Of a stretch of 64,000 bases of DNA, positions 1 through 33,349 are shown one piece after another. The DNA lies in contig CAYXPY010000007.1 of the NCBI GenBank assembly GCA_964467345.1, forward strand, positions 11,868 through 75,867, written 5' to 3'. This DNA comes from an uncultured Thermoplasmatales archaeon (lineage in GTDB: Archaea > Thermoplasmatota > E2 > DHVEG-1). A program made the translations under genes and the position numbers. Within the stretch, counting starts at the first letter, position 1. Each line of letters opens with the position of its first letter. The notes below the pieces were generated by a model, which did not search any database, was not told where the DNA came from, and worked only from the letters and a program-made list of their open reading frames with translations.

Positions 1-1836
1 GCTGCTTGAATTTGTTGATTCGAACTGCCCCCAGCCATACCCTGTGTTATACACACAGCCGAACGCAAGCTCGGTGTCTGAATGGAACAACATTGATTCG
101 ATGATGCCATCGTCACCATCATCGAAATCACCGCAGTGGCATCCGTAATCATGGATGAAGAACGGTCGCGTGTTATGATACAGGTTCTCCCAGTCGCTCT
201 TCCCGACATCCAGGGACATCTGGTTGTTCGCATGGGCAATCCCACTAATGATGGTCACCCGGTCCTCGTTAATAGCGGTCCTAAAGCCGTTAATGGCTCC
301 GGTTTCACTACCGCCCTGCCAACCAGGGTTGGGTGGCTCCGCGGTCCATCGGACGGATATGTTATACTCGTTGCCGATATTGACCTGGTTCCAGGTCTCA
401 AACCCATACTGGAAACCCACCCAGGTGGGAAACTGCCCAGGATCATCAGGGTCGGGCCCAAGCCAGTCGTCGGTTCCTTTTATAGCACTATAATCGACGA
501 AATCATCCCCCTGACAGTTCCATCCGGTGTTCCCCCCATAGAACCCGGTGTTGTCAAGGTAATCGCCATCGGTGCTCTCCGCATAGTAAAAGCATTTTGT
601 CAGCCAGTTGGAGACATCCTGCGGCGTATCACAGGTGACACGACCGAGATACACCTCTGCATAGAGATCAAAGCCATTGTCTGCTTCCTCACCCCAGCGG
701 TTATCCTGATCCGCATTGAAGCTGTTATCAAGATTACTCCAATAAATATCAGCATCGACGTTCCCCTCATAGGCGTAATACATCTGCCGGGCTGGCATCG
801 TGTCTGCATCCCCGGCGATCAGGATGAATCGCGTCTCCCAATCCTGATACGCGTCTCTGCAGAACTCCCGGATGCGCGCCTGGCTGTCGTTGAAGAGTGC
901 AGTGGAGTTATAATAATCAGGGCAGGCAAGGATATCCTGCTTGGTGACAAGCGTGCAGCTTAACCCATCTGCCGCATGATGGCTCATCAGGCTTTCCCAG
1001 TTATACGGGGTCGTCGTGGTGGTGTCCCAGTAGTCCAACCCGTTCTGGGTGGTCGTGATAATCACATAGTCATAATGATCTGAAGAATCGCACAGCCCTC
1101 CCGGGTACTCAAAGGTCGGCAGACCAGCACGGGGGTACTGGTTCATCACCTCAGGGTTGGAGACCAACCGGGCGACATAGGATTGATCCTCAGGATCGCC
1201 CCGATAGAACTGGTTCTGGTCTGCATCCTGTAACGTTATTGTCACCGTCAACCGAGGGTAGTACTGCAGGATGCCTCTCACCGGGTTGTACTGCACCGGA
1301 TTGAGGTTTACGGAAAGAACCGGATACCCATGGGAATATCCTAGGCAATACTCTGAATAGCGCATGATTGGATGGAACTCATCGGTTGCATACAGCTCTT
1401 GGTTCATGACAAACTCAAATGGCTCGTCACTCCCGATCGGGACAGACCGCTGCTGCGGATACAAGGGTGTCTCCGTTAGTTTCACCCCAGCCAGATCCAG
1501 TGGAAGTGGGCTCCCCAGGACGTTGATCCGTGCGACCGTCTTATTGGGCGGCAGCAGCAAGGAAACCACCTTGACAGGAAGTGCTGGGTCCCCTGCGGAT
1601 CGACCAACCGCGATACAGCCTGCCTGCGAGATGGTCGCATAGGCTGCATCCATGGGTTGTATGCTTGGCTCAAGGAACTCAAACGAATAGCTCAATCGGT
1701 TCCCTACGAACCTATCTTCAAATTTCAACGCAGCCCCCAGTGGTGCTGCGGCAGATGTCATCATCAGTGCGATGCACATCAGAAAAACGACACCTATTCT
1801 GCCTTCTATACTCTTGTTCTTATGTCTGTTCTTCAT
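1..1836 (-). CDS. Secreted peptidase C25 (gingipain-like) paralog, 3' end truncated by window edge (612 codons in window, no stop)
   Basis: Manual minus-strand translation from ATG at 1836..1834 gives MKNRHKNKSIEGRIGVVFLMCIALMMTSAAAPLG (signal peptide-like), then DYVIITTTQNGLDYW...GDADTMPARQMYY...ISGIAHAN...HDYGCHCGDFD. It is open in frame to position 1. Architecture and motifs parallel the C25-like paralogs at 36345 and 62780. Absent from the supplied ORF track (no stop in window). GGGGAT RBS-like and TATATA motifs upstream. Confidence 0.6.
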   Translation of the reverse strand, partial: MKNRHKNKSIEGRIGVVFLMCIALMMTSAAAPLGAALKFEDRFVGNRLSYSFEFLEPSIQPMDAAYATISQAGCIAVGRSAGDPALPVKVVSLLLPPNKTVARINVLGSPLPLDLAGVKLTETPLYPQQRSVPIGSDEPFEFVMNQELYATDEFHPIMRYSEYCLGYSHGYPVLSVNLNPVQYNPVRGILQYYPRLTVTITLQDADQNQFYRGDPEDQSYVARLVSNPEVMNQYPRAGLPTFEYPGGLCDSSDHYDYVIITTTQNGLDYWDTTTTTPYNWESLMSHHAADGLSCTLVTKQDILACPDYYNSTALFNDSQARIREFCRDAYQDWETRFILIAGDADTMPARQMYYAYEGNVDADIYWSNLDNSFNADQDNRWGEEADNGFDLYAEVYLGRVTCDTPQDVSNWLTKCFYYAESTDGDYLDNTGFYGGNTGWNCQGDDFVDYSAIKGTDDWLGPDPDDPGQFPTWVGFQYGFETWNQVNIGNEYNISVRWTAEPPNPGWQGGSETGAINGFRTAINEDRVTIISGIAHANNQMSLDVGKSDWENLYHNTRPFFIHDYGCHCGDFDDGDDGIIESMLFHSDTELAFGCVYNTGYGWGQFESTNSSS

Positions 1837-1974
1837 TGGTTATCCCCTATCTCGTATATACCAGTACATAAGAACGATGCCTGAGTATATATGCTTTATC
1901 GTCTCTGAGAGCTCATCAATCACGGCGTAACAGGAGGGATTCTTTCCTACCATCATGCGTGAGACCATCAGAAG

Positions 1975-2042
1975 AAAAAAAAAGAAAATATATAAAAAAA
2001 AAATTAAAAAAAAATAGAGGAGGAGTGAAAGATTTCACTCCA
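1975..2042 (-). terminator. Hairpin (GGAGTGAAA-gat-TTTCACTCC, 2022..2042) followed on the minus strand by a long oligo-T tract. Terminator of the 1683-aa gene
   Basis: Perfect 9-bp inverted repeat with 3-nt loop 13 nt downstream of the stop at 2055. Plus-strand poly-A (T-rich on the minus strand) 1975..2016. Confidence 0.45.
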
Positions 2043-2054
2043 ATGCGTGTGTCT

Positions 2055-5000
2055 TTAGAGCTGTTTCAGCAAAGTGTAGTACTGTTGCTGGTTGCCGTAG
2101 TCAAACGAGGTGACGACATCGCTCATCTTTGAGTTGCCTGCCGCATCATAGACGATACATTGTGCGGTGTGGATCTTTGATTCGACCAGGAACTCGTAGG
2201 GTGCGCCGTCAGTGTCTTCGCCGACTAAGGCGTCATCTGCGTAGAACTCCACTTTCACGATGCCGCTGGTGGCGTCTGTTGCGTCCGCCTCAAGTAACCA
2301 TTTGGTCTTCAAGCCGTTCTGTGCTGTTGCGGTGAAGGCGTTGATGACCGGTGCGGTCTTGTCCATCTTGAAGCTGATGCTCTTCTCTTCCTCGGTGTTT
2401 GGAGGCACTGCTTTGTCGACGGAGTAGAAGTAGACTGTGTGTTGTCCATCGGTGGTGACCTGGAATGGTGTTTCGTAGAGTGTCCATTCGCCGTTGTCGA
2501 CCTTATACATGGTGTAGTCGACGCCCTCAGGCCATTTCTCATCGTATGCCGTCAGGGTCACGGTGACGCTGCTGACATACCATTCGCTCTGGCCCATGGT
2601 CCCTGCGAGGGTTGCCTCGGTGGTCGGTGGGGTCGTGTCGGGGATCCTGATGATCCAGCTGAGTGTCTTCTTGTCGTTGTTGGGGTGGTCATCGCCAGGT
2701 AGCACGGTCTTCATGGTGAGCTTGTAGTCTCCTTCTGCATCGGGGTCCTCAGGTATGGTGATGTCCGGGAAGGTGACAACTGCGGTCCCACCAGGTGCGA
2801 CTGGTCCAGCGACAACAACAGTCTCATCATAGACGATGACACCAGTGTCGTTGGTGATCTGGGCGTTCACGGGGATGTCAATCTCGGGGAAGGTGACTCC
2901 TAGGTTCTGGATGATACCCTCAACGGGGTAGGTTCCAGGTAACCAGTATTCGTCGCCACCGCCACCAGAGGTGACATGTCCACGGATCTCAAAGGCGACA
3001 TCATAGCCAAGGCCAGGGAGATCGTACCAGGTTGCACCATCAGAGGAGAAGAACGCGGTCTTCAGGGTGATACCGGGTGCGGAACATTCCAGTGGGTATT
3101 CTCCGGTGTTATGGGTTCCTTCCACGCAGAGCCAGATATCGCTTCCATCGAGTGTGACTGGACTTGAGAGTGGTACTTCGAACCAGTCGTCACCGGTGAT
3201 GCTGAACGGCTCAGTGGTGATCTCAGCACCAGGAGCAGTTGCTGATCCAGCGCTGTAGATGTGAACGTTCCCAGAGAATGCGACGGCACCGTAGTGCTTC
3301 CAGCGGATCATATCGAGGTCCCATCCGATGTATGGTGTTTGTTCATCGATGGTGAACCGGTTTGCACCGTAGATCTGACCAGTGGTTGAGCCGAACGCGT
3401 TGGCGTACACTCCGTTATCGTATTGTAACCAGCCTTCATCCTTTGGAGCTGATCCAGAGGGTTCGGTGATTGCAATGACTCCCGCGTCGTGTTCGTAGCT
3501 GAGGGTGATGATCTTTCCAAGGACGTTATCAGCTGGGTACCCATCATCCATGAGTGATGCTTCCAACAGGCTTAGGTCATCGAAGAAGATGTTGTTGCCG
3601 TAGAAGGACTCTCCATAGAAGCCGATCCAGACCGCTGGTAACCCCGCAAAGGCAGACAGACCAATGCTGTGTTGTTTCCAGCCGGTTGACCCATCGTACC
3701 GGTTGATGGTTTCAAGCAGGTAGAAGTTGGCTCCGTCTGGTGATGCGCAGACCGTGATCCGGTCCGTAGTCCCACTGTATCCCGTGTCGTGATACATCCA
3801 GAGTCTCATTGCATAGCCGTCAGCTGTGGTAAAGTCGAAGGAATTGTCCTTGACAAACAGTTTGCTGTTACCTGAGCTGATATACCAGCAGGCATACCGG
3901 GCCATCCAGCTGCCACCATGTGGTGTACAGGTTGGGTAGGTTCCGCTTTGTACGCCGTCGAATTTGTTGTCGACATCGGTTCCGCTGATGGTGTATTGAG
4001 ACCAGCCGGGGAAGTAGCCAGGAACTTCAGGTGTTCCCGCATCTTCGAATCCGACAAAGGTTCCATCAGGTAAGGTGACATCATCGACCCAGATATACCA
4101 GGCGTACCAACCAATGTAGCGGATAGCGAAATACACGGTTTGTCCCACATAGGCGGACATATCAAAGGTGTATTGCGTGTAAACCCCGGGCACTGGATAA
4201 TAAACACCAGCAAGCATGGTTCCTGAAAGGAAGTCAGCGGGGGTGTTCCCGGTTGTGGACATGTAGATTTCGTATTCATCGTCACCATAGTTGTAGGTGT
4301 CGACCCAGAGCTCAAAGATTCCGCCGGGCGCGACGACAACAGGTCCTGTTGCGAGCCAGTCATCGTTGGGTTGTACCGCGTAGTCATAGGTGCATTTTGC
4401 ACATCCCACTCCGCTGCGTTGTCCCGTAGTACTGCGGACCCAGGCATTTCCGGTGTTGACGTTATAAATCATCCAACCTGGGGGTTGCCATTGAGGTGGA
4501 ACCGTTGGGACCCAGTCCTCAAAGCCGTAGGTGTAGAACTCAGCGAATCCGTTCAATGTCGCTTCGACGTCGACCAAGTAGTCGATGTTCTCAGCGAAGG
4601 GAACATCTGATGGTGTCCAGTCAGGCAGGATAGCGTTGACGGTTTCACCAGCAACGACATCAACGGTCACGGTCTCGTCATATTCCTCGACCATGTCAAT
4701 GATGCCAAGCCAGGCGTCATCAACGTACCAGTAGTTGATGTTGAACGAATCACCGCTCATATCCCAGGCGATCCGGAAGGTTGCTGATCCGACACCATTG
4801 GCTGCGGTTAAGGCAACCTCCGTGGTAGCTGGACCATACGGACCACCGGCACGGACGTACGCATCGCTCCAGGTTGCTCCTGAATCGATGGAGGTTTGGA
4901 TCTTCAGGTCATAATCACCGTTGTAATCGTTGACGTACTCTTTGAATTTTAAGAGCAGTGCGGTGTATCCGGTGGTGTCGATATCCATCGTGTAGAGTCG

Positions 5001-7106
5001 GTGTTCACCAACACTGGAAGGTGACCAGGTGAAATATGCCTCTGGTGCGACTCCGCCAGCGTAGTTTGTGCTGCTGCTCATCCAGTTGCTTGGGTAGTTG
5101 GTTCCCCAGCCTGCTGGTGGCACGCCACCGGAGAAGTCTTCTTCAAGAAGCGTGGTGTAGAGGGCTTTGCCGATGGTCATGTGCACGTTGACGCTCTCGG
5201 CGTTCTGACCCTTGTTGAAGATGACGACCTCAGGGGTCTGGGTCTGTGCAAGACCGTTCTGTGGTGAGACGATCTCTGTTATTGCGACATCATGGAGGTA
5301 CCCGTAGTGCAGGGTGAAGGCTTTCTCCTTGTAGTCGTTCTGGGTGTTCTCATCGACAAACAGGTTGGTTGCCTCTGCGTTGTAGTTAATGTTGACATTC
5401 TCAGAGACACCAAGCGCTGCAGGTGTCCAGGTTGGGAAGGAAACCTCTAAGGTTGTGTCTGGTGCAATCGAGGGGACCGTCACAGTCTGGCTGTATTCAT
5501 TCTGCCAACTGATGATGGTAAATCCGACATCATCGATGTACCACCCGGTGTATTGAACAGACGAGTCAGAAGCGGTTTCGAACATGATTTTACAGTCTTG
5601 TCCCTCATAGGCGCTTAAATCAAAGTTGGCTTGTTTCCAGCCACCACTTTGACCATTATAGGCGGCCTGTCCAGTCATGTACGGGTTATATGCCATGGAA
5701 CCAGGGTATCCTCCAACGGGGGTGATTATCGTCCAAGTGGTTCCACCATCGTTACTGATTTTGACGTTTCCACCATCATAATTGTTCTCAAAGTAGTACC
5801 AGTGCCAGAAGTTGAACAAGGCACCACTGGGGACGGTAAACGTCGGCGTCACAAGATAACACCACATGCTGGCTGGGTAGTTCCCGGCTAGGTTTGTCGC
5901 CCAGACGTTCGCACCATTGTGAGCAGCCATTGGCCCAGAGGTCGGTGCGCCCCATTGCCATGCATCAGGCTGTGGGAGCTTTGGCGCGTGAATGTAACTG
6001 CCGTTGGTCGCCTCGAAATCCTCAACAGTTCCCGTGACGACTTCAACACCGATGTCGAGCTTAATTTGGACGTTAGTCTCGGTGTTCAACCCGATGTTCT
6101 TCACTTTAACGATCGGGGTGATCGGGCCGGCGTTGCCGCTGGCTGGTTTGACAATACCGCTGATCGCGATATCATGGTCATATTGGAACGGTAACCAGGG
6201 GATGGCGAATCCATCGACTTCCATACCGCCTTCGAAGGCACCAACCAAGGTACAGGTTAAGCCGTCTAAGGTGTACAGACCAGCTGTGCCACTTTGGGTG
6301 TACCCAGCGATGTAGAAGATCTCATTGTCTCGATCATAGGCTGGGTCCTGTGCATACAAGAACCCGATGTTCAACGCACCAAGATCCGTAGCTGCACCGG
6401 ATGCTTTGTCAACGGAGTACAGATGGCTCATACCGCTGAACAACACATCATAACCATAGATATCACCGCTGTTATCACAGATGAGACCAATCAGGGTGTT
6501 TGCGATCCCGTGAGAACCAACAACGGTGGATGTTCCTGTTAACACATCAACGGTGTATAAGCTGCCGCCACCAGTTCCATACCAGGTAGCCGTAGTTGAA
6601 TCAAAGCACAACCCGTTCATACCCGGTGAGGGGCCCATTAAGGTCATGGTTCCATCATAATCGATATGATAGATCCCACCACCGTACTCGACACCATACC
6701 AGTTACCATCTGCATCGATGTCAGCACCGCCAATGAAGTTGGGGACGATACCGGCTTGCAATGATTCGATGGCATCAGGGGTATCAAAGGTGATTGGCCC
6801 TTCTGGATGTGCACCGGAGGGATCATACGCGTTATACGCATAGAAATAACCCCTGTCTAACAGTGGTGCATGTTGGGTCGGAATTCCCTTTGTTACCAAA
6901 GGTGATAACCCATCTGCTCGTGCTATATATTCTTTGTTCTCTGCATCTAGAGCTATGACGGGTATGCTATTTTGTGTCTTAGTTTCCTGTGGCCGTATCG
7001 CTGCAGACGCTGCAGTCCCTAAAAAGAGGGCAGCGACTAGGACGACGGTCATTAGAAACATAGTCTTCGCTAGCTTACTTTTCCATACACTATGTTTTGC
7101 TTTCAT
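2055..7106 (-). CDS. Giant secreted multi-domain protein (1683 aa): signal peptide, beta-propeller-like Gly/Tyr/Asp-rich N-terminal region, four MAM/choice-of-anchor-J-like modules each ending in a [WF][YF]xDD motif, and a C-terminal Ig-like module shared with the 29608 protein
   Basis: N-terminus MKAKHSVWKSKLAKTMFLMTVVLVAALFLGTAASA. Repeated motifs TGWYIDDVGF / NYWYVDDAWLG / AWYIWVDDVTLP / NNIFFDDLSL. C-terminal ~185 aa (TLAGTMGQSEWYVSSVTVTL...DKTAPVINAFTATAQNGLKTKWLLEAD...QQQYYTLLKQL) is about 70% identical to the C-terminus of the 29608..31374 protein. Confidence 0.7.
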   Translation of the reverse strand: MKAKHSVWKSKLAKTMFLMTVVLVAALFLGTAASAAIRPQETKTQNSIPVIALDAENKEYIARADGLSPLVTKGIPTQHAPLLDRGYFYAYNAYDPSGAHPEGPITFDTPDAIESLQAGIVPNFIGGADIDADGNWYGVEYGGGIYHIDYDGTMTLMGPSPGMNGLCFDSTTATWYGTGGGSLYTVDVLTGTSTVVGSHGIANTLIGLICDNSGDIYGYDVLFSGMSHLYSVDKASGAATDLGALNIGFLYAQDPAYDRDNEIFYIAGYTQSGTAGLYTLDGLTCTLVGAFEGGMEVDGFAIPWLPFQYDHDIAISGIVKPASGNAGPITPIVKVKNIGLNTETNVQIKLDIGVEVVTGTVEDFEATNGSYIHAPKLPQPDAWQWGAPTSGPMAAHNGANVWATNLAGNYPASMWCYLVTPTFTVPSGALFNFWHWYYFENNYDGGNVKISNDGGTTWTIITPVGGYPGSMAYNPYMTGQAAYNGQSGGWKQANFDLSAYEGQDCKIMFETASDSSVQYTGWYIDDVGFTIISWQNEYSQTVTVPSIAPDTTLEVSFPTWTPAALGVSENVNINYNAEATNLFVDENTQNDYKEKAFTLHYGYLHDVAITEIVSPQNGLAQTQTPEVVIFNKGQNAESVNVHMTIGKALYTTLLEEDFSGGVPPAGWGTNYPSNWMSSSTNYAGGVAPEAYFTWSPSSVGEHRLYTMDIDTTGYTALLLKFKEYVNDYNGDYDLKIQTSIDSGATWSDAYVRAGGPYGPATTEVALTAANGVGSATFRIAWDMSGDSFNINYWYVDDAWLGIIDMVEEYDETVTVDVVAGETVNAILPDWTPSDVPFAENIDYLVDVEATLNGFAEFYTYGFEDWVPTVPPQWQPPGWMIYNVNTGNAWVRSTTGQRSGVGCAKCTYDYAVQPNDDWLATGPVVVAPGGIFELWVDTYNYGDDEYEIYMSTTGNTPADFLSGTMLAGVYYPVPGVYTQYTFDMSAYVGQTVYFAIRYIGWYAWYIWVDDVTLPDGTFVGFEDAGTPEVPGYFPGWSQYTISGTDVDNKFDGVQSGTYPTCTPHGGSWMARYACWYISSGNSKLFVKDNSFDFTTADGYAMRLWMYHDTGYSGTTDRITVCASPDGANFYLLETINRYDGSTGWKQHSIGLSAFAGLPAVWIGFYGESFYGNNIFFDDLSLLEASLMDDGYPADNVLGKIITLSYEHDAGVIAITEPSGSAPKDEGWLQYDNGVYANAFGSTTGQIYGANRFTIDEQTPYIGWDLDMIRWKHYGAVAFSGNVHIYSAGSATAPGAEITTEPFSITGDDWFEVPLSSPVTLDGSDIWLCVEGTHNTGEYPLECSAPGITLKTAFFSSDGATWYDLPGLGYDVAFEIRGHVTSGGGGDEYWLPGTYPVEGIIQNLGVTFPEIDIPVNAQITNDTGVIVYDETVVVAGPVAPGGTAVVTFPDITIPEDPDAEGDYKLTMKTVLPGDDHPNNDKKTLSWIIRIPDTTPPTTEATLAGTMGQSEWYVSSVTVTLTAYDEKWPEGVDYTMYKVDNGEWTLYETPFQVTTDGQHTVYFYSVDKAVPPNTEEEKSISFKMDKTAPVINAFTATAQNGLKTKWLLEADATDATSGIVKVEFYADDALVGEDTDGAPYEFLVESKIHTAQCIVYDAAGNSKMSDVVTSFDYGNQQQYYTLLKQL

Positions 7107-7369
7107 AAAATTTTACCTCGCCTTACTCTTCTTAAATGCGTATGGTCTTAATAAATGTTTCGCACCAAATATATATATTAATATTTAAAATAAAATAAAA
7201 AGAATTGAAATAACTCCTCTGGAGAAAAACAGAAAAGAGACAGAGAAAAGAACCTTTCTACAGACCATTATATAATAAACGTATTAGAAATCAGATCCAA
7301 CCACCACACAGCCTAAGGAAATCCGCCCCCAACCAACAAAACCTGCTCTTTATAGTACATAATACATAT

Positions 7370-7410
7370 GTAGAAAAAAGAAAAAATCAATAAAAAAGAA
7401 AAAAAAGAGG
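7370..7410 (-). terminator. Oligo-T tract (minus strand) immediately after the stop of the 7414..9768 gene
   Basis: Plus-strand aaaaaagaaaaaatcaataaaaaagaaaaaaaaga directly 3' of the minus-strand TAA at 7414..7416. Archaeal terminators are oligo-T. Confidence 0.4.
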
Positions 7411-7413
7411 ATG

Positions 7414-9768
7414 TTAGGCGACGTTTACAAAAAACGGGCCTATCAACAGAGCGGTTGCGGTTTTTTCCAGTTCACCGACCGTGACAAGGATCTCCACCGA
7501 TCCAAGACCAAACACAAAACCGGTTTTGGCCTTCGGGGCAAACCCAGGCATGATCTTCTCAAACGAACCAGATGAATACCGGCCAAGAAGAATCAGGTTC
7601 CCCTGGATGGCAATCGACCAGTTCACATTCGTTGCAGCCCCAGCCCCCGTGTTCTTAATCGCTGCCGTGACACTCCCAACACCAGCGGAAATCTCCCCAA
7701 TCTCGATGCAGGGAAGCGCATCGATGTGGATGGAGGTTTCCTCGGACCAATCGCTTTCCAGGTCATCCGTGTCCTTTGCCTTGACCTTGATACTGTAGTC
7801 ACCTATGATCGTCCAGCTATGGTTCAAAACAACAGATTCACCAGAATCAAACGGACCAAGCCACCCAGTCATCTCATCACCCCAATAAACCATGTAATAC
7901 ACATCATTGTTCTGCGGGTCTGTCGTCAGGAACGTAAACGAATACTCAATCCCGATCTCTCCTGCGGTTGGCCCTAAAGGTTTATCAGGTATATCTGGCG
8001 GCGTGTTGATGTTCGTCTCCCCATTCCAGAGCTTCACGGATGAGTCACCAAGCACATTATACGCCTCAAAATAGTATTTTGTCAGACCTGACCCACCGTA
8101 ATATTCATAGAGATAGAACAGACCCTTATTGGTCATACCACCGATCATCTCAAGGTTATCCTCCCACCAGGCTTTAAACATCCGTTTCTCTAAGATATCA
8201 TCCTCATCCCAATAGGTCGAGGCAGACGCACCCCAGAACGCTATTGCCCCTTTGTTTTCAACCCGAAGCCATGTTTCACCAAAACATTCACCTTGGTTAA
8301 AGGGGTTTGTCGAACAGGCATGGCTACACACAAACGGATACATATAATAATTCTGAAGATTCTGCACATTACTTTGATCGAACGGAACACAGCCCCATCC
8401 TCCAGAGTACCCATGTCCCGAATAAACACACAGGCTTCGTCCATCGTTCAAAGCGTTTGTGACATCTGAAGTGCTTCCGCCCTGCGATTGATAAATCTTA
8501 TCACAGGTGTAGTTGTTTGGCGCAAGGTAGGTGTCAATCACATAGTTATGGGTATCCTCTGCCATCCCCCCTGCATCACTTGAGGCGAGAAACGCTGCTT
8601 TCTTTATCCAGGACTCGTCTGGGAACACACCAACCTCATAATAGATGGTTTTATCGACCATGATGGTCACATGCTCAGCGGTAGCGGCGGGAAAACGACT
8701 CACTATGAGATCAGCAAAATAATTCCCTTGATCAATCGTAGCATAATACAAATCAGTACACGAACTACTTTGCGTACCAGTCCACGTGGGAATCTGAGCA
8801 ACATCACCGACTAACAAGACATACACCGGAGGCGTCGTCCAGTTATTGAACGCATCAGCGATATAGCTTTTGATCATTTCTTTTGTGACACCACCCGGGA
8901 TCTCAGAGGTTGTCGTCACCGTGGTCTCAAAACCCAGGGAGTCTTTCCAGTCAGCAAACGGAGCAATCGCATCGACAAATGAATCATGAACAATAATTAG
9001 ATATCCTTCTTTCCGCGGTCCATTTCCCGTCGTCCCTTCCAACGCACCATAGTTGACAAACGAGGTGCGGAACAGTTGTTCAAACGAGGAAGTTGTATAC
9101 CGGTCAATCCTCTCAGCAGTCTTCACCAGATCGCTCCCCGGAAGCTCGATACGGATATCACAGCTGGTCATAATGCGTAATTTTCCAGTAGAAGGATTAT
9201 ACTGCACGGGAAATATACTCAGAAACGCGATGTTACGTCCTCGCAGTTCCCCAAGAGCACTGACCGTAGCGACATTCGAAGGCACAAACGAGTCCTGCGC
9301 ATAGAGGCTGTCATCAATAGTAAACGGTACCGTCGCACCCTCTATTTTTACCAAAGATTCCTGAACAGGGATCACCCATGAGGGAAGATGCAACGCGTCA
9401 AGTGATGTCGTCTCCCAGGTCACCGATTCAACAACAAACGCAGGAACCGCGCCCTGAGGAATTTCCAGAAACCGGGAAATCACCGGTAGCTGAGGCTGAC
9501 CAACAACTGTGGAAACCCCCTCGCCAGGTATTTCCACTGTTGCATAATTCTGCCCAGCAAGAATGCGTTGACCGAACGTTAACGGAGACGGTGTGATACT
9601 CACGGTGATATAAGGCTGGTCGGTATAATGAAACGTCGATGTGATACCATTTGAGTTCATAGAAAACGACTCACTCGTTGGATGAACTGCACTAACCCCT
9701 GCCGAGAAGAGAAGTATCAGTGCAACAGCTGCCTGAATAACCATTTTTTTCTTAGTACTAAGCTTCAT
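7414..9768 (-). CDS. Secreted peptidase C25 (gingipain-like) with C-terminal PKD domain plus CARDB-like beta-sandwich module
   Basis: Signal peptide MKLSTKKKMVIQAAVALILLFSAGVSA. YLIIVHDSFVDAIAPFADWK...LLVGD core. His/Cys dyad context VYSGHGYSGGWG and FVCSHACSTNPF. PKD signature YYMVYWGDEMTGWLGPFDSG...GDYSIKVKAKD. C-terminal ~100 aa (NTGAGAATNVNWSIAIQG...KTGFVFGLGSV) is homologous to the C-terminus of the adjacent M14 protein. Confidence 0.7.
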   Translation of the reverse strand: MKLSTKKKMVIQAAVALILLFSAGVSAVHPTSESFSMNSNGITSTFHYTDQPYITVSITPSPLTFGQRILAGQNYATVEIPGEGVSTVVGQPQLPVISRFLEIPQGAVPAFVVESVTWETTSLDALHLPSWVIPVQESLVKIEGATVPFTIDDSLYAQDSFVPSNVATVSALGELRGRNIAFLSIFPVQYNPSTGKLRIMTSCDIRIELPGSDLVKTAERIDRYTTSSFEQLFRTSFVNYGALEGTTGNGPRKEGYLIIVHDSFVDAIAPFADWKDSLGFETTVTTTSEIPGGVTKEMIKSYIADAFNNWTTPPVYVLLVGDVAQIPTWTGTQSSSCTDLYYATIDQGNYFADLIVSRFPAATAEHVTIMVDKTIYYEVGVFPDESWIKKAAFLASSDAGGMAEDTHNYVIDTYLAPNNYTCDKIYQSQGGSTSDVTNALNDGRSLCVYSGHGYSGGWGCVPFDQSNVQNLQNYYMYPFVCSHACSTNPFNQGECFGETWLRVENKGAIAFWGASASTYWDEDDILEKRMFKAWWEDNLEMIGGMTNKGLFYLYEYYGGSGLTKYYFEAYNVLGDSSVKLWNGETNINTPPDIPDKPLGPTAGEIGIEYSFTFLTTDPQNNDVYYMVYWGDEMTGWLGPFDSGESVVLNHSWTIIGDYSIKVKAKDTDDLESDWSEETSIHIDALPCIEIGEISAGVGSVTAAIKNTGAGAATNVNWSIAIQGNLILLGRYSSGSFEKIMPGFAPKAKTGFVFGLGSVEILVTVGELEKTATALLIGPFFVNVA

Positions 9769-9976
9769 TCTTCATATCCCCTATTAATTCTATTTATTCT
9801 CTATTTAACACTAACAAAATTCATATTTATATAGATATCGACTAGATGAAAACCTTCTTCTCCACCAAGAAGTCTAGGATTTCTCTCATCATGCTCTTCT
9901 CTCTTATACATACTCTCCTGTCATACGTTCTTTATTACAAGATAACCATCACATGTTTTGAGAAGGGAAAAACTTG

Positions 9977-12343
9977 CTAGGATCGGAGGAATACCAAGGG
10001 TCCCAGAAGAAACCCGGAAACAGATTTCTCAGCGACATCTGCTGTAACAAGAACCGTCACTGACCCGACGCCGAAGACAAAACCGGTTTTTATCTGGGGG
10101 CTGAACCCAGGGACGATCTTGAGTATCGTTCCCGTAGTCTCCCTTCCAAGGAGAACCACGCCACCCTGAAGAGAAATCGACCAGTTCACATCCACAGCAT
10201 CCCCAGCACCGGTGTTTGCCACCCTCGCGGTGATACCAAAACCACCGGTTATCTCAGCAATCTCTACACAGGGGGAATCTGTGATGTGAACGGTGATAGG
10301 ATCGGACCAGCCGCTTTCAATACCCGCACTGTCCTTTGCTTTCACCTTCACGGTATAGTCACCAGAGGCAGACCATTGATGTACGGCTTCTGCAGAGGCA
10401 TCAGAGTCAAACGGACCAAGCCAGTCGCTTATGCTATCACCCCAGGACCAGAGATAGTAGACCTGCTGACCCTCAGGATCGGTTGTACTAGTAATATATG
10501 AATAGTTGATAGCAGTCCCACCGGTGGTCGGACCAACAGGTTGATCAGGGTTATCCGGAGGTTGATTTGCGTTTGCTGCAGCAAGGTTCTGGACGGCATC
10601 GATATCAACAGCAGGGTTCAACTCACTGGGATTACCAGTGCCATCATCAACGATTTTTACGTAGCGGGCTGACTCCACCGAGCCAGCAGCAAGATCAAAC
10701 TCAGAAGTCCCCATCCCAGTTCCAAGCAACACCCAGGGGCCTTCCCAATCACTTGAGACATACACGGAATAGCCGTCCTCTGTTGTGTCCCCCTCGAAGA
10801 TCTTCAGGTCGTTCGCATCAGGGAAATTTGTGATCTGGTCAGCCATATCCACGATAATATATCCACCGACACCAAGCGATGCGCAGACGTCATCAGGAGG
10901 CCCGAGACAGGCGATACCCTCGGTGGGGTTCGTCTGATAATTATCGGAGGGAGCATAGTACGCGCAAGTCGTGACTTGGTATGCAAAATATTGGTTACTG
11001 GGGGTGAGTGCGACATTTAACACCGTTGGTTCTCCTTCATCGACATCAACGGTGTATGTTTTTTCCTGATACCCATTTGCTCGATAGTGGACGGTATACG
11101 TCCCAGGGAGCAGGATGCGATGATAGTCCCCAACCAAAGGATCTGTGAAACAAGGCCAGAACACCTCATCAACCCAGACGGTCGCAGCAATCGGCTGTCC
11201 GTTGTTCGCATTGGTCACCACACCGGTCAAGCCCATATCCGCTGCAGTGATGATATCCATCATCCCCTCACGATTCAGATCCCATGCTTGAGGGATGTTG
11301 GAAGTCTGCACTTCGATGGTCCAGTCGATGTCACCACGACACCCGTAACTAAAATCATTGCAATCCCCGAGGGTCTGATACCAGTCGTACCCCTCAACCA
11401 CCCAATACCCATTATGGGATGCGTACATCTCTGACAAATAGACGACGGCGTCATCGTCAGGGACACGTTGGTGTTTATAATTCCACACGTAGTTTACGAT
11501 GTTCCCGGAGCAGTGATACGACAGCGATAGCACAAAGTTATTTTCCAGTGCATTCTTGCGTATCGCTCGTGTCTCAGGCTCAGAATACGGGGTAGCGCTC
11601 TCCGGCATGTACCCATAATTTCTATTGAGATCAACCCCATGGGCATTGTATCGAGTACCTGCTTCACGTCCATCAGGATTCATCATTGGGATTATCCAAA
11701 TCTCTCTGTTGTCTACGAGGTTTGTAATCGTCGGATCAACACTATAGTTCTGGGTGAGATGAAACGCCAGATTCAGCGGAAGTTCCGCAGACATGTATTC
11801 ATTCCCATGATGAAGACCCATAATCCGAACCTCTGGTTCGTTCTCCTCGACATCCGGATTATCTGTAATCTGTAAACCCCAGATGCTCCTGCCTTGCACG
11901 CTTTTCCCAAGCTCGTGTAATCGTGCAATCTCCGGGTAGTCTGCCGCGATGTTTTGAAGTTCTGTGGTCATCTGCGCATAGTTGTGGAAATCACGAGCAA
12001 ACAAGGGAGAGAATAACCACCCGCGCTCCATTGCAATCTCATCAGGGACCAGCTTTGGAGAGAGATTCATAACCGTAAGCCAGTGATACTCCTCTGGTGA
12101 GATAAGGACAACAACAGATGTTCTAGTTTGGTCAATCTCAAGAATGGTCATTCGTTTCTGAAGTATCTGATCAAGCACGTATGAATCCGACAGCGGAACA
12201 GAGACGACAAGAGTCTCAACCGAGTATTGTGTGATGGTCTGTGCCGTGAGAAATCCCCCCAGCATCAGGGTGATGCAGAGGGTGAAAAAAACACAAAAGC
12301 TATAGGCTTTTCCAATTGTTTTCATTCGATGATTCATCTTCAA
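9977..12343 (-). CDS. Secreted zinc carboxypeptidase, peptidase family M14, with C-terminal PKD plus CARDB-like module
   Basis: M14 hallmarks YHNYAQMTTELQNIAADYPEIARLHELGKSVQGRSIWGLQIT, HHGNEYMS (HxxE zinc site), NPDGREAGTRYNAHGVDLNRNY, SYHCSG, DWTIEV. PKD segment YYLWSWGDSISDWLGPFDS...GDYTVKVKAKD. C-terminal ~100 aa parallels the 7414 protein. N-terminal hydrophobic segment. Confidence 0.85.
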   Translation of the reverse strand: MKMNHRMKTIGKAYSFCVFFTLCITLMLGGFLTAQTITQYSVETLVVSVPLSDSYVLDQILQKRMTILEIDQTRTSVVVLISPEEYHWLTVMNLSPKLVPDEIAMERGWLFSPLFARDFHNYAQMTTELQNIAADYPEIARLHELGKSVQGRSIWGLQITDNPDVEENEPEVRIMGLHHGNEYMSAELPLNLAFHLTQNYSVDPTITNLVDNREIWIIPMMNPDGREAGTRYNAHGVDLNRNYGYMPESATPYSEPETRAIRKNALENNFVLSLSYHCSGNIVNYVWNYKHQRVPDDDAVVYLSEMYASHNGYWVVEGYDWYQTLGDCNDFSYGCRGDIDWTIEVQTSNIPQAWDLNREGMMDIITAADMGLTGVVTNANNGQPIAATVWVDEVFWPCFTDPLVGDYHRILLPGTYTVHYRANGYQEKTYTVDVDEGEPTVLNVALTPSNQYFAYQVTTCAYYAPSDNYQTNPTEGIACLGPPDDVCASLGVGGYIIVDMADQITNFPDANDLKIFEGDTTEDGYSVYVSSDWEGPWVLLGTGMGTSEFDLAAGSVESARYVKIVDDGTGNPSELNPAVDIDAVQNLAAANANQPPDNPDQPVGPTTGGTAINYSYITSTTDPEGQQVYYLWSWGDSISDWLGPFDSDASAEAVHQWSASGDYTVKVKAKDSAGIESGWSDPITVHITDSPCVEIAEITGGFGITARVANTGAGDAVDVNWSISLQGGVVLLGRETTGTILKIVPGFSPQIKTGFVFGVGSVTVLVTADVAEKSVSGFLLGPLVFLRS

Positions 12344-29607: not shown

Positions 29608-31374
29608 ATGAAGAAACAACTATATAGAAAAAGTATAGTCGTAGGACTTTTAGTCCTGTTTTTTGGAGCAAGTGTCATCCCTGCAGCTATTACCATGACT
29701 CAAATATCAAAAATCGCCCCATTACCAGGCGATCGAGGATTTTTACTCATCCCAGACTCCACGGCAAAATCTGTCGGGATGTACGATCCTTTTGAGGGGA
29801 CCTATCTAGGTGACCTTATCGTCGATACAACACGCTTTTCAACCCCTATCAACGCGGTTGTAGGACCTGATGGGGACATTTACGTCTCTGATCAAGTCGC
29901 TGATTCTGTATTTGTATACGACATAGCCGGAAATTACCTCTACACGTATGCAGATAGTAGTGATGGTCTAGATAACATTCGAGGCATAGCCTTCAGAGGT
30001 ACTGAACTGTTCATTTCAAAGGGTGGTACACCAAAATGTATCGCACGATTCTCTGGCCCACACACCAGACTACCCGATTTCATCGCTGATGGAATCGATC
30101 CCTTCGACATCCTTTTCCTCCAAGATGGACGATGCCTTGTCGCTGATATCGAAGGATCAACAGATAATGTCCGTCTGTATAACTATGATGGAGTATTAGA
30201 ACAAATACTCTTCCAGGTAAATTTCCCAGAGCAAATCCAATTCGACAGTCTCGCACCTGGTGCCTTCCTCACTGCAGCGTTCTCCGCGAATGTAATTCAA
30301 GACTTTGAACTGGATGGCACAATCGTCGAAAGCACACCTTATAGCTCAGGCAGAGGTGTCTTCCGTCTTGGAAACGGCAATATCCTCGCAACCTCATCAG
30401 CAGGGATACAAGAGATCCAACCAGGAACCGGTTCTATCATCCAAACAGAAAAAACAGGTTCAGGGAGATTCATCGAGGTGTACTCAACAGGTGAAAACCA
30501 GCCTCCAAACACCCCGAGTAATCCAGACCCAACCGATGGTGAAACCGAGGTTGCATTAGATAAAACCTTAACCTGGATGGGAGGCGATCCAGATCCAGGA
30601 GATTATGTCACCTACGATGTGTATTTCGGGACAGAAAGCTCTCCACCACAAGTCGCTAGCAATATATCAACCGCAGCCTACACTCCTGAAGACATGATGT
30701 ATAACGAGCATTATTACTGGAGAATTGTCTCCTGGGACAGCGCCGGTCTCACAGCAGAAGGCCCTGTTTGGAACTTCTACACCCTCACCGATGTCGAACC
30801 ACCGACTAGCCAGCACACTTTAGATGGAACAATGGGACAGAACGACTGGTATATCAGTACTGTCACCATCACCATACAAGCAACAGATGATGTTTCTGGT
30901 GTTGATGCAATCTTCTATAACATCAATGATGGAGAATGGACAGAGTATACCGAACCAATCGAAGTCGATGAGGATGGTGACTATACGTTTGAGTACTATG
31001 CCATCGATAATGCAGGTAATGAGGAGACACCAAACTCAGGGACCTTTAAATTAGACAAGACTGCCCCAGTGATCAACACATTCACTGCGACAGCGCAAAA
31101 CGCTCTGAAAACAAAATGGCTACTTGAGGCAGATGTAACTGATGCAACCAGCGGTATCGTCCTTGTAGAGTTCTACGCAGATGATGCCATAGTAGGAAAT
31201 GTCACCACACCACCCTATGAGTTTTTAGTCGAATCAAAAATCAGTACCGCACAATGTATCGTCTATGATGAGGCTGGTAACTCAAAGATGAGTGATGTGG
31301 TTACCTCATACGACTATGGAAGCCAACAACAGTACTACAACCTACTGCTGCTTCTCCAACAAAAACTACTCTAA
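29608..31374 (+). CDS. Secreted protein: signal peptide, beta-propeller-like region, fibronectin-III-like domain, C-terminal Ig-like module with Gln/Leu-rich tail (shared with the 1683-aa protein)
   Basis: MKKQLYRKSIVVGLLVLFFGASVIPAAIT. FN3-like NQPPNTPSNPDPTDGETEVALDKTLTWMGGDPDPGDYVTYDVYFG...YYWRIVSWDSAGL. C-terminus TLDGTMGQNDWYISTVTITIQATDD...DKTAPVINTFTATAQNALKTKWLLEAD...QQQYYNLLLLLQQKLL. Confidence 0.7.
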   Translation: MKKQLYRKSIVVGLLVLFFGASVIPAAITMTQISKIAPLPGDRGFLLIPDSTAKSVGMYDPFEGTYLGDLIVDTTRFSTPINAVVGPDGDIYVSDQVADSVFVYDIAGNYLYTYADSSDGLDNIRGIAFRGTELFISKGGTPKCIARFSGPHTRLPDFIADGIDPFDILFLQDGRCLVADIEGSTDNVRLYNYDGVLEQILFQVNFPEQIQFDSLAPGAFLTAAFSANVIQDFELDGTIVESTPYSSGRGVFRLGNGNILATSSAGIQEIQPGTGSIIQTEKTGSGRFIEVYSTGENQPPNTPSNPDPTDGETEVALDKTLTWMGGDPDPGDYVTYDVYFGTESSPPQVASNISTAAYTPEDMMYNEHYYWRIVSWDSAGLTAEGPVWNFYTLTDVEPPTSQHTLDGTMGQNDWYISTVTITIQATDDVSGVDAIFYNINDGEWTEYTEPIEVDEDGDYTFEYYAIDNAGNEETPNSGTFKLDKTAPVINTFTATAQNALKTKWLLEADVTDATSGIVLVEFYADDAIVGNVTTPPYEFLVESKISTAQCIVYDEAGNSKMSDVVTSYDYGSQQQYYNLLLLLQQKLL

Positions 31375-31449
31375 AGAACATAAAACCATGGAGTGATACC
31401 CTTCACTCCATCATCTATTTTTTTAACCTAGGTTTTTCTAAGATTAAAG

Positions 31450-31523
31450 TGGGCCAGGCCGGATTCGAACCGGCGACCTTCGCCGTGTGAGAGCGATGTC
31501 ATAACCAACTAGACCACTGGCCC
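31450..31523 (-). tRNA. tRNA-Val (anticodon CAC)
   Basis: Reverse complement GGGCCAGTGGTCTAGTTGGTTATGACATCGCTCTCACACGGCGAAGGTCGCCGGTTCGAATCCGGCCTGGCCCA folds as a cloverleaf. 7-bp acceptor stem. Anticodon loop CTCACAC. T-loop TTCGAAT. No encoded CCA. Confidence 0.8.
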
Positions 31524-33214: not shown

Positions 33215-33299
33215 GCAGGGGTAGCCAAGCATGGTCAACGGCGCAAGGTTGAGGGCCTTGTCCTGTAGAGGTCCGCGAGTTCAAATCTCGTCCCCTGCA
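33215..33299 (+). tRNA. tRNA-Leu (anticodon GAG), type II with long variable arm
   Basis: GCAGGGGTAGCCAAGCATGGTCAACGGCGCAAGGTTGAGGGCCTTGTCCTGTAGAGGTCCGCGAGTTCAAATCTCGTCCCCTGCA. 7-bp acceptor. Anticodon loop TTGAGGG. T-loop TTCAAAT. 13-14-nt variable arm. Confidence 0.8.
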
Positions 33300-33349
33300 C
33301 TATCTTTATCATTTTAACTAATATTCAATTTATTGTTGTGTAAAAAAAA

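Follow-up and report, generated by a model that had tools for sequence, protein, structure and literature searches.

Small modules that close unrelated secreted proteins of one organism are known from several systems, among them the C-terminal domains of the type IX secretion system (T9SS; as in the gingipains), the dockerins of cellulosomal enzymes and the choice-of-anchor proteins. Here we describe a C-terminal module, together with a hairpin element that follows its genes, from a 64-kb stretch of DNA of an uncultured Thermoplasmatales archaeon (contig CAYXPY010000007.1, assembly GCA_964467345.1), the whole of which we refer to as the window. Two genes in the window encode the module: a giant secreted-protein gene of 1683 amino acids (2055..7106, minus strand) and a secreted-protein gene of 588 amino acids (29608..31374, plus strand). 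As in the systems named above, the module is strictly C-terminal on unrelated cargo of one organism, and it is small and immunoglobulin (Ig)-like, as are the T9SS domains. Moreover, bacterial homologues of the 588-residue protein end in T9SS sorting domains (PF18962) at the same position as the window module, other archaeal orthologues end there in a PKD domain and a different hydrophobic tail, and the giant protein has a choice-of-anchor J domain. Neither window protein matched Por_Secre_tail (PF18962) in Pfam and NCBIfam scans, and archaea, to our knowledge, have neither an outer membrane nor a T9SS. Archaeosortase-type signals (PGF-CTERM and the like) were not found either, there being no match to an NCBIfam CTERM entry, and the two tails (...GNQQQYYTLLKQL and ...GSQQQYYNLLLLLQQKLL) have no segment of the length that a transmembrane helix needs. 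Pfam gave no dockerin match, and the fold predicted for the module is all-beta, whereas a dockerin is a duplicated ~22-residue calcium-binding loop-helix.

The window encodes Hjc and aTrm56 and is therefore archaeal. Orthologues of the 588-residue protein carry the names Thermoplasmatales archaeon SM1-50 and Thermoplasmata archaeon M9B2D/M11B2D, which are genomes of MBG-D (Marine Benthic Group D), or Thermoprofundales (PMC6461988). These rank among the most abundant sediment archaea, with extracellular protein degradation as their presumed lifestyle (PMC6461988). Behind a signal-peptide-like N-terminus, the giant protein carries InhA-like MAM and choice-of-anchor J domains followed by the module (Pfam matches PF20773 and Big_7/DUF7743; NCBIfam matches NF038128 and NF047446). 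The G+C content at third codon positions (GC3) of its gene is 0.60 overall, with a rise along the gene from 0.38 at the N-terminal end to 0.74 at the C-terminal end. The 588-residue protein likewise begins with a signal-peptide-like N-terminus, continues with an NHL-like beta-propeller part and an FN3-like segment, and ends in the module; the GC3 of its gene is 0.42.

In both proteins the module consists of an OmpL47-type Ig-like beta-sandwich (domain 1), a Big_7/DUF7743 domain (domain 2) that begins at the motif DKTAPVIN (D1582 and D483), and a Q-rich tail of ~20-30 residues. Domain 1 spans amino acids 1490-1581 of the giant protein (2364..2639, minus strand; NF047446 at 66-73 bits; predicted local distance difference test score (pLDDT) >90; GC3 ~0.75) and 395-482 of the 588-residue protein (30790..31053, plus strand; 87-89 bits; GC3 0.41-0.45). 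Domain 2 with its tail is encoded in a GC-rich codon dialect at 2058..2363 (minus strand; PF17957 30.3 bits, PF24893 27.9 bits) and in an AT-rich dialect at 31054..31371 (plus strand; 36.8 and 32.8 bits; GC3 0.44). Both copies exceed the curated cutoff of NF047446 (40 bits; the giant module scores 72.8 and the 588 module 88.9) and the gathering cutoffs of PF17957 (24.1 bits) and PF24893 (27 bits). An AlphaFold2 model from a 21-sequence alignment predicts two tandem beta-sandwiches (mean pLDDT 91) and a disordered tail. A Foldseek search against the PDB returned solely generic tandem Ig/FN3 structures (SiiE, an S-layer protein and receptor FN3 pairs) and gave no functional lead.

The original prediction held that the last ~185-190 residues of the two proteins are ~70% identical and that the stretches encoding them, ~75% identical in nucleotides, are written in different codon dialects. 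The homology is beyond doubt: BLASTP aligned amino acids 1488-1672 of the giant protein with 393-572 of the other at 118/185 identities (64%; E = 2e-66), and a codon-aware alignment of 188 codons gave 66% amino acid and 67% nucleotide identity. As the similarity covers two folded beta-sandwich domains, it is not a short low-complexity match. Identity at the three codon positions is 0.73, 0.81 and just 0.48, and differences are thus concentrated at third positions, as proposed. GC1 and GC2 of the two copies are near-equal, whereas the GC3 of the module is 0.73 in the giant gene and 0.44 in the 588 gene. Moreover, 48 synonymous differences have G or C in the giant copy and A or T in the 588 copy, with 8 in the opposite direction, and the two dialects are therefore real. 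Both of the example strings that had been quoted for them (2331-2363 on the reverse strand and 31054-31086) encode DKTAPVIN(A/T)FT. No third copy of the module was found in the window by tblastn.

The two copies are unevenly alike. Domain 1 is 47% identical in amino acids and 56% in nucleotides, whereas domain 2 is 86% identical in amino acids and, with the tail, 77% in nucleotides (Fisher p = 3e-8). The predicted nucleotide identity of 75% therefore fits the distal half, where the ungapped inverted arms are 76% (2212-2373/31044-31205) and 84% (2075-2203/31211-31339) identical, but not domain 1. These arms lie 28.7-29.0 kb apart rather than the ~24 kb first given. For domain 2 and the tail the number of nonsynonymous substitutions per site (dN) is 0.10, that of synonymous substitutions (dS) is ~2 and thus saturated, and fourfold-degenerate sites are 39% identical; the dS of domain 1, at ~1.7, is saturated as well. 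Given these values, the window copies have long been separate while the protein was conserved, in agreement with the earlier view that the pair did not arise by a recent duplication in place.

Scanning metagenomes with the module alignment gave 80 loci, of which 1.1 Mb was fetched and 40 module copies were examined (loci and proteins are cited by their L and P numbers). Copies were grouped by bootstrap nearest-neighbour counts and average-linkage clusters. Compared with the giant protein, the 588-residue protein is 14% identical in its host part, 47% in domain 1 and 86% in domain 2; compared with its own orthologues P0035-P0040, the corresponding values are 62-72%, 53-68% and 49-62%. The converse pattern is seen between the giant protein and P0004, its closest giant-type fragment, where identities of 85% in the host part and 73% in domain 1 drop to 51% at the domain boundary. 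Against those of its orthologues that share its class of domain 2, which we call variant A, the giant protein is 63-73% identical in domain 1 and 69-83% in domain 2. The nearest neighbours of the 588 domain 1 are 588-type orthologues in 97% of bootstraps, and the nearest relatives of the giant domain 1 are giant-type orthologues. For the 588 domain 2, on the other hand, the nearest neighbour is the window giant copy (87% of bootstraps; the reverse assignment reaches 75%). Both window copies of domain 2 cluster in variant A, whose other members with a classifiable host are giant-type genes. At least nine 588-type orthologues carry variant B or variant C, and never the class found in the window 588 gene. 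The 588-residue protein is thus a mosaic whose domains 1 and 2 differ in nearest neighbours and in identities, and a segment phylogeny that conflicts with that of its flank is what gene conversion leaves behind. As read from the sequences, the exchanged unit is domain 2, the tail and the 3′ hairpin only, with domain 1 tracking the host-gene family. The original prediction of a module exchanged between genes of different base composition therefore stands for the distal half of the module alone.

Conversion of this segment is seen directly in a relative. In L030 a giant-type gene is directly followed by a 588-type gene (P0034), and their domain 2 and tail are 90% identical in nucleotides with a dS of 0.19, whereas the dS of domain 1 is ~2. 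The inside and outside of the tract are both saturated in the window pair, at ~2 and ~1.7. In L030 identity climbs ~340 nucleotides before the stop codon and holds at 0.7-0.8 for ~100 nucleotides past it. Therefore, the distal segment, including the 3′ element, was copied between the giant and 588 families at the DNA level. Two giant-type genes that lie in tandem in L001 are also more alike in their distal part. The window pair shows a further mark of gene conversion, as the homology runs on into the non-coding flank, with a spacer, a hairpin and a T-run after both stop codons. As a separate observation on L001 (ENA contig_18384), a giant-type gene at 5632-10555 appears as 4-5 consecutive open reading frames (ORFs; 121, 434, 587, 159 and 184 amino acids) that jointly align with the window giant, probably owing to long-read frameshift errors or because it is a pseudogene.

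These data bear on the notion that the whole module was duplicated once, long ago, with no later exchange, domain 2 simply being slower to change and the dialects reflecting long residence in two genes. The saturated dS of both domains and the strong purifying selection on domain 2 and the tail (dN 0.10) are in keeping with such a history. However, domain 2 is no more conserved than domain 1 between orthologues of either family, by the ranges given above, and unequal constraint therefore cannot explain 47% against 86%. Moreover, the 588 domain 2 differs in variant class from all of the at least nine orthologues, the 3′ flank is common to both genes, and L030 demonstrates the exchange of exactly the distal segment. 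We consider an ancient duplication alone to be very improbable.

In the 3′ element of the giant gene (1994..2054, minus strand), an A/C-rich spacer leads to the hairpin GGAGTGAA-ATCT-TTCACTCC (2022-2041), after which come a C/T-rich stretch and T-runs. That of the 588 gene (31375..31424, plus strand), which is also present in P0152 and P0157, has a spacer before the hairpin GGAGTGA-TACCC-TTCACTCC (31390-31409) and, behind it, a C/T-rich stretch with a T7 run. Each hairpin starts 13-15 nucleotides past the stop codon. Compared with shuffled sequences, the predicted folds are unusually stable (-11.6 kcal/mol, z = -3.7 for the giant gene; -14.8 kcal/mol, z = -5.9 for the 588 gene), and both elements match a terminator scan in having a G+C-containing stem and a T-run, which would make them intrinsic-terminator-like. 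The pattern GGAGTG-N3-12-CACTCC occurs at two sites in the window, both behind module genes, with 0.04 expected by chance. In the 1.1 Mb of relatives' loci we counted 32 occurrences of the oriented hairpin with its T-run, 27 of them within 80 nucleotides downstream of a module-gene stop; of the other five, three are the reverse reading of the same palindromes, one lies behind the P0004 module gene and one is unexplained. The sole hairpin with a T-run that has no recognisable module gene next to it is at position 5950 on the minus strand of L022.

The element directly follows module-gene stops in L001, L019-L037, L042, L043, L054, L068, L098, L100 and L102. In its consensus the spacer reads TAA-AGACAAC-n-ACACAAC, and the hairpin has a GGAGTG stem core that is invariant and a loop that varies. 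Across different variants of domain 2 the element is 61% identical (gaps counted as mismatches), compared with 38-42% at third and at fourfold sites in the domain 2 beside it. In three beta-helix giants (L044 at 10660, L045 at 10675, and L048) the usual stop has been lost and the ORF continues through the spacer to a TGA in the hairpin arm, giving a tail that ends in ...LLYRQTHNTE. A search of the region 1900-2120 against Rfam 15 gave chance-level matches only (E ≥2.5; 11 bits, where ~55 are needed).

The window copies also differ in how their domain 2 relates to the host gene in composition. At fourfold sites the 588 domain 2 (A.40, C.25, G.13, T.21) matches its host gene (A.38, C.29, G.09, T.24), whereas the giant domain 2 is more extreme than its host (C.50 vs.37, T.07 vs.24; GC3 0.70-0.71). 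In P0152 and P0157, close relatives of the 588 gene with a host dS of 0.35-0.58, domain 2 and the tail have a GC3 of 0.57 and 0.53, whereas domain 1 and the host part are at 0.39-0.44. Nucleotide identity of domain 2 to the giant copy is 0.815 in P0152, 0.80 in P0157 and 0.77 in the window 588 gene, and of five amino acid differences between the latter and P0152/P0157 in domain 2 and the tail, three restore the giant residue. With the giant copy as outgroup, changes in the window 588 domain 2 were polarised as 15 from G/C to A/T and 3 from A/T to G/C. Since its close relatives retain a GC-richer domain 2, the window 588 copy has drifted towards AT. Among more distant 588-type orthologues, L030, L034 and L037 have a domain 2 GC3 of 0.59-0.62 over hosts of 0.37-0.45, and P0035 is wholly AT-rich. 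The AT-rich dialect is best explained, in what is also the simplest reading, as amelioration of a once GC-richer domain 2 to the codon usage of its host.

Two dialects in one stretch could also be an artefact of a chimeric metagenome assembly that joins the genomes of two organisms, and there is indeed a drop in GC from ~0.52 to ~0.40 near 12.3 kb. The GC-richer first 12.3 kb hold a minus-strand cluster of secreted-protein genes, namely an M14 carboxypeptidase (9977..12343), a C25 peptidase (7414..9768), the giant gene and a left-edge ORF of more than 613 amino acids. However, Logan contig L017, from another sequencing run, crosses the composition boundary near 12.3-13.2 kb in the order C25, M14, response regulator, 401-amino-acid ORF, histidine kinase, and because this independent contig reproduces the GC-rich/AT-rich junction the window is not a chimera. 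The 588 locus, too, recurs in other independent Logan contigs, and the exact 588-residue protein is P0032 in independent assemblies; an exact-sequence look-up of the giant protein gave no record. The genome of the window is present in the sequencing runs SRR12489243, SRR12489244 and SRR12489246. GC3 is, moreover, heterogeneous across the whole window and in related contigs. A chimeric origin of the dialects is thus scarcely credible.

Transfer between lineages, which had been proposed alongside exchange between genes, would have the dialects mark two source genomes, with the GC-rich giant gene or its module coming from a GC-richer organism and the AT-rich copy being native, or the reverse. Such an origin would fit the GC3 values of 0.73 and 0.44 and the 48:8 bias, the higher GC of the first 12.3 kb, and a giant codon usage that differs even from that of its same-strand neighbours. 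Moreover, the 588 domain 2 has in P0001/L019, which stems from another sample, a relative almost as close as the giant copy. Yet giant-type genes and the module are GC3-rich in essentially all relatives (module above host in 31/33), and the GC-rich dialect is therefore a property of the family rather than the mark of a recent import. The composition junction recurs in an independent assembly, the closest domain 2 lies in the same genome, and the intermediate GC3 of the close 588 relatives is that expected for drift in place. Lineage transfer is consequently not needed, and we hold it to be decidedly unlikely.

A further possibility is that selection on codon usage, through expression or through the speed or accuracy of translation, sets the dialects irrespective of history. 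The usage of the giant module is certainly extreme, with 4-7% T and 50-56% C at fourfold sites and a C/(C+T) ratio at two-fold sites of 0.77-0.79, against 0.34 in housekeeping genes, and the extracellular peptidases of the Thermoprofundales lineage have been reported to be highly expressed (PMC6461988). However, within what is one mRNA, GC3 takes a step upwards where the module or domain 2 starts (from 0.25-0.35 to 0.53-0.57 in L044, L045 and L048), and the window 588 copy and P0035 show no such bias despite a conserved protein. A translational-accuracy effect was rejected, as conserved residues do not have more GC-ending codons than variable ones (0.52 vs 0.56; Mantel-Haenszel z = -1.7). Codon selection is therefore an unlikely source of the dialects as a whole, and may contribute to the extreme usage of the giant gene. 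A strand-wide mutational bias as the cause of the C-rich third positions of the giant gene was likewise rejected, since the adjacent same-strand C25 and M14 genes are G/T-rich. Skews at third positions are in fact opposite in these co-oriented neighbours (fourfold C.37 and G.15 in the giant gene; G.35 and T.31 in the C25 gene).

The GC3 excess of the module is not peculiar to the window. Across 33 non-redundant genes, the GC3 of domain 2 exceeds that of the host part in 31 (mean +0.105, p = 3e-9), and that of domain 1 does so in 26. GC3 steps up at the edge of the module or of the domain. At fourfold sites it is chiefly C that is in excess, at the expense of T, and G is only weakly raised. Most giant-type hosts, already GC-rich, show the excess too, so that a flow of sequence from GC-rich donors is not the whole story. 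GC-biased gene conversion, proposed for bacteria by Lassalle et al. 2015 (PMC4450053), is a candidate cause.

We also asked where the module occurs among relatives. It is terminal in 40/40 copies, with 29-59 residues from the D.AGN motif to the C-terminus, on cargo that includes MAM/choice-of-anchor J giants, NHL-like propellers, arylsulfotransferase-like propellers, NosD-like beta-helix giants and a CarboxypepD_reg protein. The order of its parts is an OmpL47-type domain, a Big_7/DUF7743 domain and a disordered Q-rich tail ending in hydrophobic-x-Q/K-x-L, followed after the stop by the spacer, the GGAGTGA/TCACTCC hairpin and a T-run. A scan of species-representative genome contigs with the module, using search patterns that were too specific, gave just distant bacterial Ig-domain matches and no close relatives. 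A profile search of 1.84 billion representatives returned 52,897 matches with up to ~49 repeats per protein and is uninformative on the cassette, being swamped by tandem OmpL47-type repeats. The strictly terminal position, the diverse cargo, the choice-of-anchor J domain of the giant protein, the slot that homologues fill with T9SS or PKD tails, the purifying selection and the variant shared within a contig together suggest a role of the cassette in surface retention, sorting or partner binding. Such a role would explain why different cargo of one genome carries the same variant.

Taken together, we think it probable, though by no means certain, that a shared C-terminal cassette has undergone gene conversion among secreted-protein genes of Thermoprofundales, followed by amelioration. 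Homologous recombination or gene conversion would repeatedly have copied the distal ~0.4 kb, made up of domain 2, the tail and the 3′ element, between paralogues, with the upstream breakpoint at the conserved DKTAP site where the two domains meet. In the lineage of the window, the 588 gene would thereby have swapped its family-typical domain 2 for a giant-type variant. The donor was most likely intragenomic, namely the genome's own giant gene or one of its close paralogues. The swap would fall after the split from the ~70% identical orthologues and before that of the 92-95% identical strains. The incoming GC-rich copy would then have taken on, by amelioration, the AT-rich codon usage of its new gene, while the giant copy would have retained the C-ending usage typical of giant-type genes and of the module generally, with the protein sequence kept by purifying selection (dN/dS ~0.05).

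Several points weigh against this account. Bootstrap support for the window copies as mutual closest relatives is just 75-87%, and the giant-type P0001/L019 of another sample is nearly as close (81-85%), so that a different paralogue or a related genome could have been the donor. Saturated synonymous sites, and a dS inflated by the shift in composition, preclude a date for the event. Recent conversion is seen in a single contig, L030. The occurrence of one variant within a genome is judged contig by contig and based on three contigs (the window, L030 and L001), and the two domain 2 copies of a fourth, L050, are 63% identical. A GC-rich outgroup such as the giant copy favours the inference of changes from G/C to A/T, and amelioration leaves the GC3 excess of the module over GC-rich giant-type hosts unexplained. 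As to function, a fold search that yields generic Ig/FN3 structures only provides no known homologue in support of anchoring or sorting.

It had also been suggested that the ~0.55 kb of inverted homology could mediate rare inversions. Recombination between the inverted arms would leave both genes in frame and exchange their distal ends. However, the longest exact run between the arms is 25 nucleotides and identity is 77% in the better half. Moreover, the gene order of the window downstream of the 588 gene (a 124-amino-acid ORF, Trm56, an HD-domain protein) is conserved in four independent contigs, two from its own genome and two from a close relative. An inversion is therefore unlikely, on an order that was checked on the 588 side only. 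A diversity-generating retroelement was rejected as a source of the differences between the copies: mismatches lie mostly at third positions, where the giant copy chiefly has C and the 588 copy T or A, and extend over two whole domains rather than being adenine-specific. No reverse transcriptase was found among the 33 window ORFs that were scanned (the remaining ORFs were not scanned).

A bolder reading takes the distal cassette as a dedicated, recurrently copied gene-end cassette of Thermoprofundales secretomes. Its hairpin would act in cis, its GC3 excess would be the footprint of GC-biased conversion in an archaeon, and the rule of one variant per genome would reflect co-evolution with a single undescribed surface receptor or sorting machine. 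We regard this as doubtful, if worth stating. Were it true, the hairpin might be a recombination anchor that promotes conversion, or an mRNA 3′-end, localisation or stability signal tied to secretion. Under the simpler reading, partial gene conversion with subsequent amelioration, the finding would be neat but ordinary.

Some further features of the window concern the surroundings of these genes. Downstream of the giant gene, the partial ORF of more than 613 amino acids (1-1840, minus strand) has a signal-peptide-like N-terminus (MKNRHKNKSIEGRIGVVFLMCIALMM...) and runs off the left end of the window; the listed ORF at 136..963 (plus strand) is probably its shadow. The C-terminal parts of the C25 and M14 proteins (encoded at 7414-7860 and 9977-10430) share a PKD domain and a domain of ~100 residues (...NTGAG..VNWSI..LLGR..KTGFVFG.GSV...). 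A second C25 gene (36345..38876) ends, at 38700-38876, in a PKD domain and a FPRLFLVLQQLLGY tail. The same tail type terminates the 588-type orthologues P0041 and P0043, and the same cargo therefore has different end modules in different genomes. Past the 588 gene, a tRNA-Val(cac) gene (31449-31523, minus strand) lies 75 nucleotides beyond the stop codon and a tRNA-Leu(gag) gene (33215-33300, plus strand) ~1.8 kb further on. The independent short-read contigs L015 and L016 both stop just short of the tRNA-Leu gene, at ~33.2 kb in the window.

With at least four unrelated cargo architectures, the cassette is a concrete candidate for a surface-display or sorting tag of the uncultured Thermoprofundales. 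Moreover, the locus is a compact natural case in which one protein segment can be traced from a GC-rich to an AT-rich dialect within one genome lineage, and the GC3 excess in 31 of the 33 genes could be used for testing biased gene conversion in archaea. The tail and the hairpin are covered by no Pfam, NCBIfam or Rfam entry and targeted literature searches gave nothing on them; the cassette with its 3′ hairpin appears to be undescribed.

Lastly, the locus has parallels in known systems. Domains of the OmpL47 (NF047446) and Big_7/DUF7743 families recur very widely as repeats of giant surface proteins in bacteria; peculiar to the present case are the fixed pair at the terminus, the Q-rich tail and the 3′ hairpin. 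As in the GC-biased gene conversion proposed for bacteria (PMC4450053), the recombining segments are GC3-richer than their surroundings, and here the excess is mostly one of C over T. With the amelioration of transferred DNA the locus shares the decay of a GC-rich insert to the composition of its recipient, but donor and recipient here probably belong to one genome. The mechanism is a variant of known partial gene conversion. Concerted evolution of surface-protein paralogues by gene conversion likewise shows discordant segment trees, together with the abrupt change in dS and the tract into the non-coding flank that we see in L030, and copies that agree in variant contig by contig (in the window, L030 and L001). 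In contrast to that process, the unit here is a domain cassette at the 3′ end of otherwise unrelated genes rather than a segment of a tandem family, the event in the window is old and masked at synonymous sites, and a sequence-conserved hairpin travels along with it.

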